From NCBI GenBank assembly GCA_964016885.1, contig OZ024741.1:382788001-382852000 (forward strand): a stretch of 64,000 nt of DNA, in the 5' to 3' direction. Shown here one piece after another: positions 2,731 through 64,000 of the stretch. Made by a program: the position numbers and the translations under genes. The notes below the pieces were generated by a model, which was not told the origin of the DNA, ran no database searches, and saw only the letters and a list, made by a program, of their open reading frames with translations. How positions within the stretch are numbered: the first letter of the stretch is position 1; the number at the start of each line of letters is the position of its first letter. The DNA is from Eledone cirrhosa (Eukaryota).

Positions 2731-3719
<989 letters not shown>

Positions 3720-4155
3720 TATAAGAGTGTGTGTTTGTGCAAGTGTGTGGAAGTGAGAGCTTTATATGTGAACGTGTGTGAAAGTGTTTGTAGACACATG
3801 ACAAAAGGCATTGTTAGCTAAAGTGAACCTTAAAAGTCAGGAGTGGCTCCCACGTCTATAGGATTCTTTCTGCCTTTGTTATTCTAAATATAGTTTTTAA
3901 AGAATTCTCATTTCTTTAAACCCATCAACTAATTACCTCCACCCATCCCAATCAACACACTCTCCTACCACCAGAAAAGATATAAATACCACCATATTAC
4001 TTGTATAGTTGGCTTCCTGATGATTTTTTCCGAATTAAACAGTTCTAGTCCTGTAGATGCCTTCTCTATATTAAATATTTATATTCTGCATTGTATTGAG
4101 AACCTTACTTACTGTGGTTACCCCCGATTGAACCCGACAAAAACTTATATATATA

Positions 4156-4337
4156 TAGGAAAATGTTGAACCTCGACGGCAGAGCTCGAGCCGTTTCGGC
4201 GGCTATTTCTGTCCAAAAATAGCCGTCGAAACGGCTTGAGCTCTGACGTCAGGGTTAAACATTTTCCTATTACCCTCTCTACTACTCTAAGTATTGAGTA
4301 TCTGGTGCGTTATGTTACTTCTGGTTCCTTACCACAC
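4156..4337 (+). repeat. Family A fold-back element: 3' half of an HHR plus tail, mirrored at stem II
   Basis: ~110-bp palindrome centred on gtcc (4211-4214). The right arm reads GAAA-cggc ttgagctct gacg-TC. Other copies at 8245-8420, 33468-33534, 35858-36189 and 40170-40298. Confidence 0.8.
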
Positions 4338-4461
4338 CTCCTTCGTTATATATATATATATACGAAGTCTGCTAATATGCAAATCAAGCCGATCTGTCAC
4401 TGTGTATTTTTGAAAATAGCATATATTTTCACAAACTCTGACAGTTTGGCAGGTGAACAGT

Positions 4462-5313: not shown

Positions 5314-5449
5314 AACAAAGTCAATCTGTAAACGCAGAAGTGGATATTTCAAAAAACGTTGCAACCAGAGGAAGACAGGAAGACGATACTTTGGTTCGTG
5401 GAAACGTTCCCTGACAAAGAACGGGAAAAAACGAATATAATACGTCATT

Positions 5450-6900
5450 AATAGGAGCGTTACTGATCTTATCGGCCTTTTCCTTCTTTTCTCTATCAAG
5501 GACGAATTCCCCAACGCGGGCGGCGGTTTGTACCGTGATGATGGTCTTTTGACCATGACTAATTGCGGACCTCGTGCTTGCGACAGGTTCAGAAAAGAAC
5601 TCACAGCCTTCTTTAAAAGCTTCAACTTCTCTATACAGGTTGAGGCCAATCTCTCGGTCGTTAATTACCTCGACGTTACCCTCAATTTATCGAATGGGTT
5701 GTATTACCCGTATAGAAAGCCGAATGATACGCTTAATTACATAAGTAAGCATTCCAACCATCCTGCCAGCATAACCAAGAACCTGGTAAAAAACGTTTCG
5801 TTGAGGCTTTCCCGTCTATCTACTAACGAGCATATTTTCAACGACCATTCCACCTATTACAATGAAGCTCTTGCTCGGAGTGGATTTGTCGATAAGGTAG
5901 CATATACAGAGTACAAAAATAGACCTAGAAGTAATAGATCCCGTCGCATTTGTTGGTATAACCCACCATATAATATGGAGGTGGCCACACCATTAACTAA
6001 GATCTTTCTTTCCCTTATTACGAAGCATTTTCCCCCTACACATAAATATAGTAACATTTTTAATAGAAATACTATTAAAATTTCTTACTCTACGACTCCT
6101 AACCTTGCACATAACATCACAGCTTCAAATTTAGCTAAACTACCTAACCGTAGGAACACGTGCAACCCTGTACTTAGTGCTAACTGTAATTGTAGGAATC
6201 GGCTTGATTTCCCCCTATCCGGGAAATGCCTCTCTAGTAACATTGTCTACAAATGTAAGGTTGAAACACCCACGTCCCGTAGGGCCTACATAGGGTTAAC
6301 CACCAATAGATTCAAGCAGCGTCTTTACATGCATACCCATTCTTTTCGTTAACCTCTTAGAAGGAATATGACGTCACTTTCAGCTTATATCTGGAGTCTA
6401 AAAGACAACCACACCCAATTTAAGTTACACTGGGAGATCCTAGATAGGGCTAGGTCGTATAACGGAAATAAAAGACCATGTGACCTCTGCGCTCCTGAGG
6501 CCCTGGAAATACTCTACGCCACAGACCACATCTGAAACAAAAAATCTGAGGCAATTTCCGCTTGTAAACATAAATTGCACAAACATTTCCTGTTTTACAG
6601 CCCCACATTATACCCTAACAGATAGTACGATCTATACGTGGATTTTTTAGGTCTTGATGTGGTAGGTAAGTATATATTTTGTTTATACCATTACTTATTT
6701 GCATAGGTAAGTATATATTACCTGTATGTTTTGTGAAGGTACGTATACTTTCTCATACGTATATTTGATTGTTTATGTTGTGGCGTATACATTTTTTTGT
6801 CGGGGATTAGTTAGTAGAGGCGCAAACTTGTGCAATCCCATTAAGGTGCATACACGACAACCTATAGTTTATGTGATAACCTGTCTTCGGTGAGGCTCTA
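5450..6900 (+). mobile_element. 5'-truncated PLE (RT C-half plus GIY-YIG), CxCx5C/Hydra-like
   Basis: YRDDGL, NYLDVTLNL, WYNPPY, CNCRNRLD(F)PLSGKCL, IVYKC..AYIGLTTNRFKQR in ORF 5528-6352. Premature stop. Confidence 0.92.
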
Positions 6901-7700: not shown

Positions 7701-8436
7701 ACAGCTGAATGCTTTTAAAATATTTATTCTTAAACATATCATATATTACAAGGTACACAACATATACATTCCCTTATGCACACAGTTATGTTTGAGCTAA
7801 CACCTTAATTCTATTTATCGGCAGAGCCAGCTAGTAGCTCTATATACAGATGAAGCTAATCAGCCATATACATGGGTATCTAAACTATAGGTGTTGGCCT
7901 ATATAGAGTTCCAGTAGAGAGCAGGGTACGGGGAGTTTTGACTTGATAAAGCTTGGTTGCATTGGATGCCAGTATTATTCAAAGCTATGGCTTTCTAAAT
8001 GTTTATTTATAAACTACCGTTTCTCGTTAGAGAAAATACAAACACACACACACACACACACACACAACGTGGCCAGTTGCAAAACACATATATATCTATG
8101 ACTTTATGTTTATGTATATGTAAATCTTTATATTTAATAATCTCCCGTTAGGTTGAGATACAATTGAGCGAGATTGGGCTGCGCTTTCTAGCAACAAGCC
8201 TACCCGCCGCAAGCGGGTAGGCTTGTTGCTATAAATATATATAAATAACGAAGGAAATGCGGTAAGGAACCAAGTGGACCATAACGCACCAGTGTACTCA
8301 ATACTTATTGTAGTAGAGTGGTTAATAGGAAAAAGTTCAAGACCCCGACGGTAGAGCTCAAGCTGTTCCGACGGTTATTTCTGCGTCCAGAAATTGCCGT
8401 CAAAACGGCTCGAGCTCTGAAAAATGAAGTATATAT

Positions 8437-33078: not shown

Positions 33079-33470
<392 letters not shown>

Positions 33471-33534
33471 AAAGTGTAGGACCCCGACGGCAGATCTCAA
33501 CCCACTTCGACGGCTATTTCTGGACAGAAATAGC

Positions 33535-35060: not shown

Positions 35061-36294
35061 CCCAGAGTCCATCCAACATAGCAATATTATGTGTATTTTT
35101 TTGTCCTGGGATCCCCCGGAAGCCTGTGGCGCATTCAAGGCAGACAGAGATGCGACATCATCATGGCAATTTTGTTATTTCTGCCCATCCGTAGAAAAAC
35201 ACAGAATGTAAACAATATAGGTTTAGCACACTTGATTACGATAGAGATTAAATGTTGTTTTTTTTTGTTGTTTTTTTTGTGTATTTTTGTTTCCGTTTTC
35301 CTAAATATTGTGTGTGTACAAAAGGATCTGCGCTTCTATGTATAATTTAAAAAAAAAAGTATGTATATAGGTATATATATAACCCAAATAAGCACGGGGA
35401 ATAGATTTTAAACAGAAATGAAGTCAGTGGTTTTACTGGAGTTTACGATACTTTCATTACAGTCTTTCACACTAAATAGTGTGATTTATTTTCACTTTGT
35501 GTGTATATATATGTGTATGCTACATATAGATATGTGTGTATGTTGCTGTTTTATAGAGTTTGGATGTACTTACTGTCGTCCAACGTCGATTTGTTAGTTT
35601 TCTTTTTTTCATCATGTCCACACCTGGCGAAAAATATAGTTTACTTCGTCAACAAAAAAAAAATATTTAAAAAATGGTGAAGAAAGTTGTGATATTTTTC
35701 ATACTGGTCTTACAAGTAAGGGACAAGTTAAACTATTCTTAATAGTGGAGTTTGCAATCCATCTGACGTGTGATATTAGCAATTTTCGCTGACAGTATTA
35801 TATTGAGATGGGACCACAATTGCTTGCGTCCATCCGCATCGCCATCTTGATTTGTTCACATATAACGAAGTAAGTATGGTAAGGAACCAGGTGAACCATA
35901 ATGCACCAGAGTACTCGATACTTTGGGCAGTAGAGTGGGTAATAGGAAAGGGTTCAGGCTTTTCCTATATATATATATATATATATATAATGGAGGAAAT
36001 GTGGTAAGGAACCAGGTGGACCATAACGCACCAAAGTACTCAATACTTAGGGTAGTAGAGTGGGTAATAGGAACGAGTAGGACCCTGACGGCTGAGCTCA
36101 AGCCGTTTCGACTGCTAATTTTTTTTTTTAGTCCAGAATTAGCCGTCGAAACGGCTTGAGCTCAGCCGTCAGGGTCCTACTCGTTCCTATATATATATAT
36201 ATATATATATTCCTGATTTCTCAAGAATGAAACAGTTCTAGTCCTGTAGAATCTCATCTATATTAAAACTGTTATACTCTGCTATAATTAAAAA

Positions 36295-36732
36295 TTACTA
36301 CTCTAAAACAATAGCATACGGTCTTCAAAATGCTTTTAATTAAGCATAAAGTGTATTGCAAAATATATTATATATACATCCATATATATATTGCTATTTC
36401 AGAGCTCCAATTCTAATTTTTAATTTCTGCCTGACCAACAATCGCTCTGTATAATTAGCTCCTGATTATTTACTAGAATTCTATAAGAATATAACATCAG
36501 TAATCTCAGTAGACAGGAGGGTAGTTAGCCTTGATAAGCTTCAACAAAAGCGAAACAAGGCCCATGTCGGCTTATCTCCCCTGTTTGCTGAGATTAAAGT
36601 AAGTGAATTTGTCACTACTCTAAAACAATAGCATACGGTCTTCAAAATGCTTTTAATTAAGCATAAAGTGTATTGCAAAATACATTATATATACATCCAT
36701 ATATATATTGCTATTTCAGAGCTCCAATTCTA

Positions 36733-39987: not shown

Positions 39988-40296
39988 CACACATACATAC
40001 ATAGCCATACAATTATACACATACATATACATACATATCACAAACACGTAATTACAAATACAAACACACACATATATATATGTGTGTAAAACTCATTCTT
40101 ACATAATTCATATGAACCATTTCTAACTCTAAAATATATATATATATATATATATATATCACAAATCAATTGTGGTAAGAAACCAGACGGACCATGACGC
40201 ACCAGAGTACTCAATACTTAGGCTATTAGAGTGGGAAATAGGAAAAAGTATGACCCCGATGGCAGAGCTCAAGCCGTTTCGACGGCTATTTCTGGA

Positions 40297-40334
<38 letters not shown>

Positions 40335-41206: not shown

Positions 41207-42014
41207 TTTCCGTTGTGTTGTAATATAAATATTACACACAGTAGATTGACAGCTCACGTAGAGTTTGATCGACGGTTCCAGCTGTAGTTCCAAAAGTAAT
41301 CCGGAGAAAAATAGAAATATTTGAATGGATACAGTTTAGTTGAAAGGAATTTATTGACACGTGTTTCTATAACCTGAAAACAGCTGCTATCTACAAAGTA
41401 TTAGTTATGCAGACATTCAATATTTCAATGTTATTATTTACTGTCATTTCATCAGAATAATATTACTGAGGACCTATTTGGTTTTTATAGACAATATTAG
41501 GAGGGAGGGGTGAAGTTGTTAGAAGAATAGTTGAGGGAGTGGTTTTTTGATAGCAGTGAGAATTTTTGGTGGCAGTGAGTAATTAGATTCCCATCTGTTG
41601 TTTTGACATTTTTTATAGAATATATTATTAGTTATTTTTCTAAATCTATAGAAGGATTAGAGATAGTGAAGATATGCGTGGTTGGTTTTGTGTTTGCACT
41701 TAATTAACATTCAGACTTAAATTTTTCTTTCAAGTGTACGTATCCTTTCACCCACGCATTCACACACAAACATATTTGCACACCTCTACAAAATACATAT
41801 ACTCACATTCACATAGTAACATGTTCATACTTACATACATATACACATGTATACATATATATATACACACATGTATTCATGTACATACATACGCGTTCAT
41901 GTGTATACATTTTCATACTCAACTTATCTTTATATACACTCGTATAGACACACACATATATACATACATACTCTAGTCTATGTGTACATATATACATATA
42001 CATACATATCTATC

Positions 42015-46358
<4,344 letters not shown>

Positions 46359-46400
46359 GTAAGTATGCATGTATACGTACATACATATATGTATACAGAC

Positions 46401-46439
<39 letters not shown>

Positions 46440-46653
46440 TACATACATATGCATACAGGTACACATATATATATATATATATACATATATACATACATAT
46501 GCATACAGGTACACATACATATATGCACGTATCAGTTTAGCGGCGCTTATTATAACGTCGCTTTGTTCGTTTGTAAACAAACTGAACAGCCTGAATTTAT
46601 GCCATACGGTGTTAAGGCAACCACGTCACCTTTTTGTTCAACACTGACACAGG

Positions 46654-46698
46654 AACGATGTACTAGTTTCAAGCTTGTTAGCTATCATCAGCACCGTT
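46654..46698 (-). ncRNA. Minimal type I HHR with palindromic stem III
   Basis: aacggtg-CTGATGA-tagc taacaa gctt-GAAA-ctag-TA-catcgtt (ACTAGT palindrome). Confidence 0.88.
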
Positions 46699-47230
46699 TA
46701 CCCATCTGCCAGATAGTTGAACGTTCGAAAGTATATACTTTCCTTATGAAAATTAACGGTTTATTAAGTTGAGTTTGAAAATGTATACACATGAACGCGT
46801 ATGTATGTACATGAATACATGTGTGTATATATATATGTATACATGTGTATATGTATGTAAGTATGAACATGTTACTATGTGAATGTGAGTATATGTATTT
46901 TGTAGAGGTGTGCAAATATGTTTGTGTGTGAATGCGTGGGTGAAAGGATACGTACACTTGAAAGAAAAATTTAAGTCTGAATGTTAATTAAGTGCAAACA
47001 CAAAACCAACCACGCATATCTTCACTATCTCTAATCCTTCTATAGATTTAGAAAAATAACCAATAATATATTCTATAAAAAATGTCAAAACAACAGATGG
47101 GAATCTAATTACTCACTGCCACCAAAAATTCTCACTGCTATCAAAAAACCACTCCCTCAACTATTCTTCTAACAACTTCACCCCTCCCTCCTAATATTGT
47201 CTATAAAAACCAAATAGGTCCTCAGTAATA

Positions 47231-47351
47231 TTATTCTGATGAAATGACAGTAAATAATAACATTGAAATATTGAATGTCTGCATAACTAATACTTTGTAG
47301 ATAGCAGCTGTTTTCAGGTTATGTAACTGTTATAGAAACATGTGTCAATAA
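47231..47351 (+). ncRNA. HHR with a 74-nt loop in stem II
   Basis: ttatt-CTGATGA-a atgacagt[74 nt]actgttat a-GAAA-c atgt g-TC-aataa. The mirror copy at 41351-41460 has a deletion in stem II. Confidence 0.75.
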
Positions 47352-59467: not shown

Positions 59468-62400
59468 TTAGAAAGTGAGGTTTTTTTACAAATTGAAAAA
59501 TAACCGAGGTGTCCTACACGAGTGAAAGTATAAAGAAAAAAGATGAAATCGAAAATGCAACTGGAGGAGTCTTATTTTAAAAATATATATATATATTTAT
59601 TTGGTTCCTTTACCGTTTTCGCAGTTCTTCTGCTTTTCAAAAGTAGAGTTGAGATGGAGGGTCTGTGGTTTTTCTCACATCTGAATGTTACTTGTTTTAT
59701 ATGGAAAAAGTAGCTCGAAATGCCAGGTTTTTCGAGAAGTAATTTGATTGGTTGGTCAATAATTATAATAAATTTCGCGCCAGTTCGCGTTACAAAGTTC
59801 TTCAAACAAGAGGGGGGTGTCACAGGTTGTTTTTTCATATATGAGTGTTTGAATTACTTTTTACTTAAAAAAAGGGGGGCTCACGAAGGCTTTTTTTTAA
59901 TAAACGTAATTTGTTATAAATGAAATTATGGCTGTCATGTGAACAAGTTTTCATTAAATTTTCGCGCCTTTATTTGGAAATCCAATCTATAGCATTTTTA
60001 GAGAATTTTATGACAAGTAAAAAATAATGGTCAAGAGAGATTGGATGGGAGAATAGTTCTGGTTCAGTGAATATGGTTAGTTCGCTGGGGTGTCAGAATT
60101 CAGATTTTCTATTGAAGTAAAGAAATTAAAGATGTGTATGTTTATTTGTGTGCTTGTGTGTTTGTGTGTGTGTGTGTGTGTTTGAATTTCTCTTTACTTA
60201 AAAAAAAGGGAGCTCACGAAGGCTTTTTTTTAATAAACGTAATTTGATTGGTTATAAATGAAATTATGGCTGTCACGTGAACAAGTTTTCATCAAATTTT
60301 CGCGCCCTTATTTGGAAATCTATTCTGTAGCCTTTTTAGAGAATTTTTTGACAAGCAAAAGATAATGGTCAAGAGAAATGGGATGGGTGAATTGTTCTGG
60401 TTCAGTGAATATGGTTAGTTCGCTGGGGTGTCAGAATTCATATTTTCTATTGAATAAAGAAAGTAAAGATGTGTATGTTTATTTGTGTGCTTGTGTGTGT
60501 GTGTATTTATTGGAAGATGATTCTATTAGTAGAAATAGGGGAGGGAGTTGTGTGTGTGTATATATGGGTGTTATGTGTTTGTGTGTGGGAGTATGTTAAT
60601 ATGGAGAGAATATATATTTTGTGTGTGTGTATATATATGTGTGTAGGAAAGTGATTCTATTAGTAGAAATGGGGTAGGGAGTTGTGCGTGAGGGGGTGGG
60701 GGTTGTTATGTGTGGGTATGGGTGTAATGTATGTGGCAGTATGGTTAGCATGTTACGATGAAGAGAATGTATATATATTGTTTGTGTGTGTATGTGTGTG
60801 TGTAGGAAAATTATTCCTGTAGTAGGAATATTTTTGAATGAACATATTTTCCTTACTTATTCGTATTTGTTCTGTTGTATTGTCAGTGCAAACCTATGTT
60901 AAGGTTTATTTAGTTCGGGTTTTTATTTTCTAAAGTAGAAGGTGTTATGTGTGTGTGTCTGTGTCTGTTTGGATGTTAAGCATGGTATGGTGTTGACATA
61001 ATGTATATTAAACCATATTTAATGCTGGCCTATATTTTTGAATAAACATATGTTCCTTATTTATTCGTATTTGTTCTGTTGTATTGTCAGCGCAAAGGTA
61101 AAATGGGAAGACTTGGAATTTGGGTGTCTTATTACTTGCGCATATATCTAGATGTGTGCTTAGTGGTATCTGTCTCGTGGTTGGATCTCGTAATTGTTGG
61201 CGATAAACTGTCATTCTGTTTCTGAGTGTGAGTTTAGTTTGTCCTATATAATCTTCATTGCATCCTTTACATTTAATGGCATAAAGTAAATTTTTTGATG
61301 AGCAAGTTAAATGATTTTTTACAGTAAAATTTTGTCCTGATTTAAATGTACACGTCTTGCCTTCAATGAGGTCAGTGCAGGTTCCACAATTAGAGCGACC
61401 ATATTTTTTGACACATGGTTGTGGGTTTGTCGTAGTTAATTTGGCATTGGTTGGTAATGTTTTCAGTGATTTCGGTTGTCTTTTGCTTTTGATTATTTTG
61501 TGTGTTTCAAGGGCTTTTTTCATTGTTGGGTTTTGTTTTAGTAGTGGGATGTTCTTGTGAATAGTGTTGTCAGCTTCCGCATTTCTTGGGTTGTGTGTTG
61601 AGATATATGATAGAATATTAGATGTACCTTGAATTTGTTTCTGTTTTCGTAATTCATCAATGCCTATTGCTTTAGCCCTTTCTATTCCATTATTTATTAG
61701 TAATAGTGGATACTCTCTTTCGAGTAGAATTTCCTTTAATTCTTGAAGTCTTTTATTTCGCGTTACATAATTGGAGACAATTGTGCAAATTCTTCTTGCT
61801 AGATTAAAAGGAATGTTCGTCTTCGTGTGCTTTGGATGGTTGGAGGTGAATAGCAGGTATTGTTTGGAATCTGTTGGTTTGTAGTGTATGTCAGTTTCAA
61901 TATTTGTGTCTTTTTTTAAGAAACGGGAGTTGATCTTGGCTGTATTCCATTGTGAATTGGATGTGGTTATTGATGCTGTTTATTAAGTTTTTGAAATCCT
62001 TAAGTTGGTCGAGTGTGTGGGACCAAAGAATGAGACAATCATCCAAGTAGAGTTTCCAATTCTCTGATAAATATTTGTGGAAGTTCAATCCGTATTTTGA
62101 TTTGGACTGTTCATATATCTGGACTTTAAGTATGCCATGACTAAGTTGGCATAAGTTGGAGCGGCTTTTGTACCCATCGCAGTCCCCGATATTTGCTTGT
62201 AAGTACTGACATTGAAATCAAAAAAGTTATTCTGTAAGATAAATTTGAATCCCTCGGTGATGAAGCTTTTTTCTATTCTGTCAGATATCTTATTGGGATA
62301 TTTTTCTAGCCAGAATCCTATTGCTTCTAGTCCGTATTGGTGTGGGATCGTTGTGTAGAAATTCACTACATCGAAAGACACAATAATAGTGTCGTTGTTG

Positions 62401-64000
62401 ACATGTTTGGGAAGGTGGTTTAAGAGGTCCAGATCGTCTCTTAGAAGGCTTGGTATGTGTTTGAGAATTGGTTTTAGTAGTATGTCTATAAAGTTGCTCA
62501 GTCTGTGTGTTTCACATTGTGGGCCCGCTACAATTGGTCTTAATTTAAGGTCTGTGGGGTATTGTGTGTTCACCCAGGCTGAGGTGGATTGTTTACAGGC
62601 ATCGTTAATTATTTTACACTTGTGGATCTTCGGAAGTCCGTAAAGGTTGCTGGTTTTGTATTCAAAATGTGTTAAATAATCGCGTTCCTTTTTAGTCAGG
62701 TCTTCCTGGTATCGATAGATCAGTGTGTTTAATCTGGTCATTGTTTTTGATTGTGGTATTTTTTACTCTTTCATAGTAATTAGTATTTTGTAAGAGAGAG
62801 AACATAGAATTTTTATATTTTTCAGCCTCCATAATGACAACAATACTTCCCTTGTCCGCTTCCTTAATTATAATGTCCGTATTGTTTTTTAGTTCATGGA
62901 TAATCTCCCATTCCCTTCGACTCGTGTTGGGTTTGGGTTTAGGTTGCGGTAGTTCAGGTTATGGGAAAGTAGCTATGTGGTCACAACATTTGTCCAGAAC
63001 TCTGTTTCTACCTTTTGTTAGGGTTGTAGCTGCTTTTATTCCGTACAATTGATTCATCGTTATTCTCCTTGTAAAAGAATTCCTCTGTGAGACGTAATTT
63101 TCTACAGAAGTGAGCTATCGTCATATATCTCATTGGGGTTAGAGTATGGTGGTGTTGGTGTGAATTTCAGTCCTTTGGAGAGAATTTTTACTTGTTGGGC
63201 TGAGAGGTTTGTATTTGAAAGGTTGATTATTTTCGGTTTTTCAAAATCGGTTTGTGCCACCGGGTGTCGTGGGTCCTGTAGCCTTGGTCTAAAAAAAAAT
63301 TTTTCTGGAATGTTTTTTCAATGGTATTATTATATCTAATCGTATTTCCCCTGTTGTTGTGTGGTCTTTTATTAAGTTTCAGACGGGTTGTAGAAGTTTC
63401 AGACGGGTTGTAGATTTTGTTCCTTTGTGTGGGTTGGGATCTTTGGTTTTGGAACAGGCTCTATGTGGGCATGGGTCTACGGTTTTGGAATAGGTTTTGT
63501 GTGGGTTGTGATCTGCGGATCGGGTCCTGCCTTGTGTTCAGGGATCTTCGGGTTTTGTTAGTAGGGTTATAGTTTTGTCTATGGTTTACGGGATTATCAT
63601 TATAGTTTTGCTGGGGGTATGTTGGACGTTTTGTTACTTTTTTAGTTGTTGAGCCAGGAGGCGTTTATTCCCCATCGCTGGAGGGATGTTAGTTCTTCAA
63701 ACTCACAGTTTTCTTTCCAAAGTTTTAAGGTTTTTTCGTAGAGTAGGCCTTCAGAGTGCTTTGAGATTAATGTGTCCATCTGTTGGTCGAATGACTTGAA
63801 TTTTTCTTCGTTGGAGTTGGCTCTTAATCGCAACAGTTCTATTTCTATTTAAATTTTTCTAACGCCATCTTTTCCCTGAGTCTTTATTGGTTTTCTGGTT
63901 CATTTGGGATGGGTTTTATTTTAAGTTTTTTTGGGAGGATGATTGGGGTAGAGTTTAGCCACTTTTCATATATGTCTGCCTTGCCATTATTTTTATGGAG
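59468..64000 (-). mobile_element. Neptune-like PLE (frameshifted; runs off the window) with a tandem ~333-bp repeat in its 3' region
   Basis: LYGLPKIHK, LRPIVAGP, SFDVVNFYTTIP, GTAMGT..APTYANL, YLDD, CGTC..TCSSKNLLYAIKCKGCNEDYIGQT. Confidence 0.9.

Follow-up and report, generated by a model that had tools for sequence, protein, structure and literature searches.

The short palindromic repeats found in a 64-kb window of the Eledone cirrhosa genome (contig OZ024741.1, forward-strand positions 382,788,001 to 382,852,000; this whole stretch of 64,000 nucleotides is called the window), here termed family A, are, judged from sequence, the 3' ends of a Hydra-clade Penelope-like element (PLE) with a 3.5-kb unit that encodes a reverse transcriptase (RT) and a GIY-YIG endonuclease. 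Each palindrome probably records two target-primed complementary DNAs (cDNAs) that ran off the likely capped 5' end of an RNA, starting inside loop II of the hammerhead ribozyme of this element, and that were then end-joined head to head. The copies have two fixed starts, stop at a wall at +1 to +12 of the element, carry an extra G there, and meet in junctions that vary from copy to copy. The original prediction for this DNA had described half-hammerheads folded back at stem II, where the nascent cDNA would snap back and copy itself. Its view that these repeats are retroelement-derived half hammerheads and no miniature inverted-repeat transposable elements (MITEs), each palindrome being built anew, is borne out, whereas the fold-back at stem II is not. 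Positions are given on an element scale on which +1 is the first A of CATTTAGTCC in the parent copy (L107:3404). On this scale the catalytic core runs from -40, GAAA occupies +23 to +26 and GUC +43 to +45, and the two outer ends, E1 and E2, lie at about +64/65 and +141.

The trail to the parent led through L019, one of 30 close copies, which lacks a mirror arm and follows a GIY-YIG-type frame and a long untranslated region. All 30 of the best matches fetched for this upstream region continue into the arm; 14 of them end at E1, 13 at E2, and 3 enter the element body. In L107 an inverted pseudo-long terminal repeat (pLTR) is followed by a direct pLTR, an open reading frame (ORF), a second pLTR and the tail, with a unit of 3,533 bp, and L108 also supports a pLTR-ORF-pLTR unit with an inverted pLTR. 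Family A thus shares with endonuclease-containing (EN+) PLEs the partial-tandem pLTRs, the adjacent inverted truncated copy and the optional tail, as well as one ORF that is linked to the repeat and encodes both RT and GIY-YIG endonuclease. A long parent of its own exists for each subfamily.

A stop-to-stop frame of 703 aa in L108 carries YRDD and (Y/D)IGLT. The diagnostic Hydra motifs given in PMC8557442 are an RWK-type motif, DKT, a CxCX5C linker, and CxxC and CxH around the endonuclease end; the frame has RWR at 16, DKT at 96, CNCPDGSIC at 551, CNLC at 649 and CKH at 677. The Hydra placement is by motifs, and likeness to Hydra-1_Obim was judged by eye from the supplement text of that paper, in which three family motifs were not found. 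The insertion bias towards (TA)n, a Hydra trait, is also seen in family A. Pfam and PDB searches with the parent ORF gave no match, and none of the 120 listed homologues has an informative name; among look-alikes in the Atlas, some clusters carry GIY-YIG and RVT_1. No start codon was located in the 703-aa frame. The parent frame (L107:3489-5228, L108:2755-3039) reaches up into the tail without an in-frame ATG; a 5' intron might account for this, or the use of another start.

In the parent, the arm is preceded by ACCCC-UUGAGAA-G-CUCGGCUAUUC and about 32 nt that correspond to loop II. This is a putative whole type I hammerhead, with the U3-A8 covariant core UUGAGAA in place of CUGAUGA and a 32-nt loop II. 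It has three stems, UGA-N-(G/A)A, GAAA, GUC, G10.1-C11.1 and a 3:8 pair, and the predicted fold is a three-way junction with a stem II helix of 9-11 bp. The core is thus a variant, not the canonical pLTR hammerhead that is a Hydra trait. Among 43 distinct natural copies, which were chosen by pattern and are related and hence not independent, 85.6% of the cells are paired, versus 24-41% when the partners are slid; in stem II, three pairs show changes in both partners, and position 3:8 reads UA in 19 copies, UG in 18, CG in 3 and other in 3. Folding z-scores of four parent hammerheads are mixed (-0.4 to -3.0). Genome-wide there are 2,164 A-type core matches, the first 100 of which comprise 64 U3-A8, 36 C3.A8 and no G8 (by eye, which here and below means tallied from printed lists). 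The B-type cores number 378 with A8 (99 of the first 100 with U3) and 29 with G8 (24 U3, 5 C3). U3-A8 is a known natural covariant, reported to be active in vitro (PMC3088659), and has been seen in a Schistosoma PLE (PMC4209133). The unpaired C3.A8 cores (36 of the first 100 long arms; also L124 and L146) are nested in the A2 subfamily, and U3.G8 lineages are basal to A1 and A2 in a midpoint-rooted tree of 65 copies, a position that suggests a wobble route between the core pairs.

The arm itself had been correctly read as the stem II 3' strand, GAAA, stem III and GUC, and is followed by the stem I 3' strand. The palindrome centre, however, is not where stem II closes: the true 5' strand of the parent is GCUCGGCUAUUC, followed by the loop, and the 'gacggctatt' taken for it is merely the mirror image of the 3' strand. 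Full copies reading gacccc-CTGANGA-gacggctatt, as predicted, were not found. The search CTGANGA-GACRGCTA gave 59 matches, of which 30 were examined and none belongs to the family. CTGANGA directly before the arm gave 16 matches, all of them junction coincidences or neighbouring repeats.

Short copies dominate the family. In the genome, which measures 3.0 Gb and comes from an animal rich in microsatellites, a 21-nt arm pattern is matched exactly 54,294 times and a 17-nt tail pattern 48,554 times; since the reversed controls gave 0, the arm pattern is far above chance. About nine out of ten insertions are stumps of 60-200 nt. A region of 464 kb around the window contains 32 arms in 16 clusters; no arm among them is long, and none reaches the catalytic core. 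An Rfam scan of the window gave no hammerhead match at the family copies.

Where the arms stop was determined on 97 arms (90 loci) from the first 100 tail matches on contig 1, picked blind to their 5' side. The 5' end falls within -2 to +12 in 49, in -40 to -3 in one and in -59 to -41 in none; 10 arms are long and 37 end at +13 to +99. The adjacent mirror arms behave alike, with 50 out of 69 ending in -2 to +12 and one in -40 to -3, while the outer end of 48 out of 69 aligns to exactly +65. Summed contig depth from two public runs jumps about 12-fold at +1 and collapses past E2, these contigs being of unknown kind, from one sample that is possibly the assembly's own source, and therefore no independent evidence. 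Eleven of the 97 arms form a second cluster, with ends at +41 to +50, which might mark hammerhead cleavage at +45/46 but has only one end exactly at +46 and is confounded by an 8-nt direct repeat and microhomology; no clear pile-up of 5' ends is seen at +46.

The wall coincides with a (T/C)AGT in loop II, conserved and unpaired in otherwise divergent loops, which we take to resemble the Initiator consensus. A TATA-like word lies 29-31 nt upstream in subfamilies A1-A3. A role of TTTAG as splice acceptor was rejected, because the arms retain +1 to +6.

A second repeat, family E, served as a control. Its hammerhead has the canonical CUGAUGA, and TATAAATA precedes the core by about 36 nt. Among its 53 arms, a set with about four spurious matches, the TATA was assigned to 10, in one case wrongly, and the remaining 43 all start at -15 or downstream of it. 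The short copies of family E begin just upstream of the core and are whole hammerheads, stem II included, on both arms and strands. Family E keeps the whole hammerhead because its wall follows a promoter-like motif that lies upstream of the hammerhead.

The bases at the wall are consistent with a capped RNA end. At 455 loci both arms reach A+5 with a preceding purine; the first 50 are G/G in 47, G/A in 3 and A/A in none, which places an extra G on 97 of 100 ends (by eye). The base before A+5 in single arms (first 100 of 12,679, by eye) is G in 43, A in 8 and C in the other 49, a C that either belongs to the native sequence of one subfamily or stems from the partner arm. The G is found in A1-type as well as A2-type arms. 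In long arms with a base other than T before A+5, found by a search that excludes the short-loop subfamily, 4 of 50 have a true G. Given so few, against 2,164 core matches genome-wide, the G is not native. Retention of a cap-derived G as a sign of strand transfer was not seen in these long arms (A 13, true G 4). Untemplated 5' G in L1 and SVA has been attributed to copying of the cap (PMC3287187).

The two arms of a palindrome appear to be separate copies. Of 69 mirror arms, 31 extend beyond the tail arm on the 5' side, 22 of them by at least 10 nt, whereas in 18 pairs the tail arm extends further. At five loci (L201, L269, L270, L276 and L277) the E1 arm is thousands of bases longer than the tail arm, with an excess of up to about 4.6 kb in L201. 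Long insertions, compared at 24 loci mostly picked for two cores, have the same design of one E2 arm and one E1 arm, and their breakpoints are unrelated. Three features, namely a separate fixed start, a length that often exceeds that of the partner, and an extra G on this arm as well, lead us to regard the mirror arm as an independently primed copy. Furthermore, the spacer between double-G ends is 0-2 nt in 30 out of 50 junctions, too short for a hairpin loop, which argues for the joining of two ends. Some junctions hold a few to about 15 nt copied from the arm's own end, and to this extent the earlier idea of self-copying stands. A C19A variant present only in tail arms (9 of 30 loci) was dropped as proof against copying, because the query carried that allele. 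In L115 (about 1400-1500) a short arm that begins at +5 continues, in direct orientation, into pLTR sequence from some 700 nt upstream, by internal deletion or a non-homologous template jump.

We propose the following route. Transcription would start at the A of the Initiator-like (T/C)AGT, that is A+5 with a minor start at A+1, and an RNA starting there inside loop II would carry only half a hammerhead at its 5' end. The enzyme would prime two cDNAs, one on each cut strand of the (TA)n target, with internal RT starts at E2 for one strand and E1 for the opposite one, and with only 60-140 nt copied. Running off the RNA 5' end, RT would add a C opposite the 7-methylguanosine (m7G) cap, and trimming would be followed by head-to-head joining of the two cDNA ends through microhomology or short templated fills. 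By the same route, the 3' pLTR copy may give rise to long copies, which would keep the whole U3-A8 hammerhead. The short RNAs could be the 5' ends of full transcripts or derive from solo 3' pLTRs. The Penelope promoter has been placed in the pLTR (PMC2377424).

Several observations weigh against this proposal. Start site and cap are deduced from scars in DNA. In many junctions the C after GACT could also begin a templated fill (CAGA, CCAGA, CCAGAATT) or a partner arm that starts at +8/+9, and only junctions such as GACTC/GAGTC (blunt), ...ATT/GAGTC and ...TTT/GAGTC exclude a templated C. The TATA-like word of A1-A3 is absent in the B subfamily, and instead of an Initiator the conserved TTAGT may represent a tertiary element of the RNA. 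Coming from the far end, four copies extend to +1 (L107, L201, L274 and L282, a biased pick), and all of them run on into an upstream pLTR, which fits a cap jump, a circular RNA as proposed in PMC4209133, or a read-through RNA. Later deletion at palindrome centres could account for part of the arm asymmetry. Finally, not one of the 87 short tail arms is paired with a long inverted arm (the partner is short and inverted in 69, unassigned in 17 and a direct join in 1), and the visible partners of long arms are long in four out of four. Such coupling of arm classes is not expected from two fully independent RNAs, and both primers therefore probably use the same RNA or RNA class.

Retroviral minus-strand strong-stop DNA is a short cDNA primed near the RNA 5' end. 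It is conceivable, though the odds are against it, that the stumps are the strong-stop DNAs of Penelope, and that RT must reach the cap and jump to the 3' copy in order to produce long insertions that regenerate the pLTR. At its 3' end the RNA would be trimmed at +45 by the whole hammerhead there, giving a retrovirus-like terminal redundancy (+5 to +45); the same trimming would remove the RT start sites from the 3' end, so that RT would start near the 5' end, and failed jumps would appear as tens of thousands of cap-marked palindromes. Unlike the retroviral product, these DNAs would be target-primed, not tRNA-primed, and the strand transfer is only a proposal. If true, this would supply the missing mechanism of pLTR regeneration.

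An unlikely alternative is that a single E2-primed cDNA runs off the RNA 5' end, primes itself at its tip rather than at stem II, and copies itself as far as E1, where the (TA)n target base-pairs with TTCC-TAT, with later deletions at the centre making the arms unequal. Such self-priming has been proposed for head-to-head Penelope palindromes (PMC3846280); it would explain the coupling of arm classes and agrees with the fills copied from an arm's own end. The prevalence of 0-2 nt spacers speaks against it, as do E1 arms exceeding their tail arms by kilobases, mirror arms that are the longer ones more often than tail arms, and the parallel between E1/E2 and the two in vitro RT start sites of Poseidon (PMC11167929).

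It is very unlikely that the arms, although independently primed, stop at +1 to +5 because of an RT stall or an RNA processing site bordering loop II, with the G added by terminal transferase activity or repair fills. In favour of this reading, many junction Cs can be templated, the evidence for cap and start site consists of DNA scars, and the wall adjoins the stem II helix. Nevertheless, RT would have passed the 3' strand of this helix before stopping, the wall falls on the conserved unpaired (T/C)AGT of divergent loops, and the wall of family E lies between a TATA box and the complete hammerhead.

A non-autonomous family, similar to short interspersed elements (SINEs) or MITEs and copied from short master palindromes that already had a G before AGTCC, would suit the excess of tail and arm matches over core matches. 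This is highly improbable and largely refuted: junctions differ between nearly all copies, the G occurs in arms of both A1 and A2 type, the outer ends are unequal and no terminal inverted repeats (TIRs), and every subfamily has its own long parent. Snapping back on the stem II hairpin has next to no credence, although the centre adjoins the 3' strand of stem II and the mirror looks like the genuine 5' strand, because the loop II and native 5' strand that it would leave at palindrome centres are absent: a cDNA that stops at +5 holds no such hairpin, only the two arms counted above end in -40 to -3, and family E palindromes keep stem II on both arms.

All five family A copies claimed for the window exist, together with a sixth stub, and none keeps the core (Table 1). 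The palindromes are real, although their arms are unequal, since the mirror arm stops at TTCC/(TA)n without the last ~79 nt (the tail); only the copies at 4156 and 35990 are palindromes of two arms with a full mirror arm, and the centre varies from copy to copy. The first copy sits in (TA)n at the end of a family E element.

Table 1. Family A copies and other repeat features of the window (element positions carry a sign)
Feature	Position	Strand	Remarks
First copy (at 4156)	4158-4346		True span, not 4156-4337
Inverted (E1) arm	4158-4210	-	Element ~+65 back to +10; starts at fixed end TTCC/(TA)n; without tail
Tail (E2) arm	4211-4346	+	Element +6 to ~+141; stops at second fixed end TTCGT/(TA)n; long copies share ends
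3' half of type I hammerhead	4216-4255	+	Without core
Stem II 3' strand	4216-4227
GAAA	4228-4231
Stem III	4231-4249		Palindromic GAGCTC loop
GUC	4248-4250
Stem I 3' strand	4251-4255
Penelope-type tail, ~79 nt	4268-4346	+	Between E1 and E2; full copies continue into ORF region
Left target flank	4146-4157		(TA)6
Right target flank	4347-4362		(TA)8
Second copy	8245-8419	-	Tail arm on - strand; mirror arm clipped
Third copy	33466-33534	-	E1 arm and stub of partner arm; without tail
Sixth, extra stub	35862-35961	-	Tail only, very short mirror end; not in the original prediction
Fourth copy	35986-36190	-	Tail arm (-) and full E1 arm (+); poly-T at junction
Fifth copy	40158-40299	-	Single tail arm stopping at +4
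Family E	4017-4060	+	Canonical hammerhead
Family E	3975-4010
Hammerhead-like motifs, other repeat families	3540, 4470, 4909, 11768, 14985, 24842, 40866	+
Hammerhead-like motifs, other repeat families	11005, 24532, 25226, 58249	-
Hammerhead-like motif, other repeat family	36517-36589	
Another PLE	41369-47322		Inside 558-nt perfect inverted repeats
RT/GIY-YIG frame of this PLE	44022-46034		670 aa
Direct repeats, ~499 bp	42058-43354		Each with CTGATGA on - strand
PLE-like RT/GIY-YIG frame, fragmentary	61008-62762	-
PLE-like RT/GIY-YIG frames, fragmentary	5441-6352, 2862-3338

The hammerhead-like motifs belong to at least six other repeat families, two of them with a long stem II, and only the motif at 36517 was matched by Rfam (HH9, sub-threshold). 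The frame of the second PLE in the window is 37% identical to that of the family A parent.

The element class and its palindromic stumps are known, and the inverted pLTR with tail, (TA)n targeting, PLE hammerheads and U3-A8 are already in print; the advance is mechanistic. The head-to-head inverted ends and the regeneration of pLTRs are stated as open in the Discussion of PMC2377424, self-priming is proposed in PMC3846280, and PMC8557442 calls for a mechanism. A literature search that covered few subscription journals found no report of cap-G, cap-marked run-off or strong-stop products in PLEs, nor of a start site inside a PLE hammerhead. In family A, tens of thousands of natural products of the reaction can be read, and their scars suggest that two cDNAs were primed and ran off a capped RNA; this model predicts the start site to the base and would explain how PLEs make mirror-image ends. 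Hammerhead surveys miss such families because of the U3-A8 core, the long loop II, and the fact that most copies are cut inside the ribozyme.

Family A resembles MITEs in being small, high-copy and palindromic, but it lacks their equal TIRs and shared junction. Its outer ends E1 and E2 differ by the tail and are no TIRs, internal sequence is not uniform as the centres vary, and a target-site duplication is not readable inside (TA)n. Non-LTR retrozymes, which have been treated as PLE derivatives (bioRxiv 10.64898/2026.07.22.740005), are likewise hammerhead-related. They consist of tandem monomers, each with a complete type I hammerhead, whereas the short copies of family A are dispersed, head-to-head and coreless. 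Full-length L1 and SVA insertions have a similar extra G at the template 5' end (PMC3287187), whereas in family A the G stands on both arms of one insertion.

A close likeness in protein motifs and design is to the C-terminal EN+ PLEs of the Hydra clade (Craig et al. 2021, PMC8557442; e.g. Hydra-1_Obim), which share RW(R/K), DKT, CxCX5C, CxxC, CxH and the C-terminal GIY-YIG, as well as (TA)n targets, a pLTR hammerhead, an adjacent inverted 5'-truncated copy and a tail. Family A differs in its unit of 3.5 kb (most Hydra elements are below 3 kb), its tail of ~79 nt (30-40 is typical), its non-canonical hammerhead with U3-A8 and a 32-nt loop II, and in consisting mostly of 60-200 nt stumps. Poseidon of Anolis (PAc), studied by in vitro target-primed reverse transcription (Frangieh et al. 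2024, PMC11167929), belongs to another clade. It likewise has two internal RT starts that bound the tail and an AT-rich target, both strands are cut and extended, hammerhead cleavage is dispensable for insertion, and the in vitro data predict a dimer; the available text of that study describes no capped-start run-off, cap-derived G or head-to-head junction. The Cercyon PLE of Schistosoma (PMC4209133; PMC3088659) has the same compensatory U3-A8 core pair in its pLTR hammerhead, and truncated copies form opposite-strand hammerhead pairs. In contrast to it, family A has a full stem III of 5-6 bp with a palindromic loop, a long loop II that would hold the start, and coexisting U3.G8, C3-G8 and unpaired C3.A8 lineages. 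The unpaired C3.A8 lineage has multiplied all the same, which agrees with cleavage not being required.
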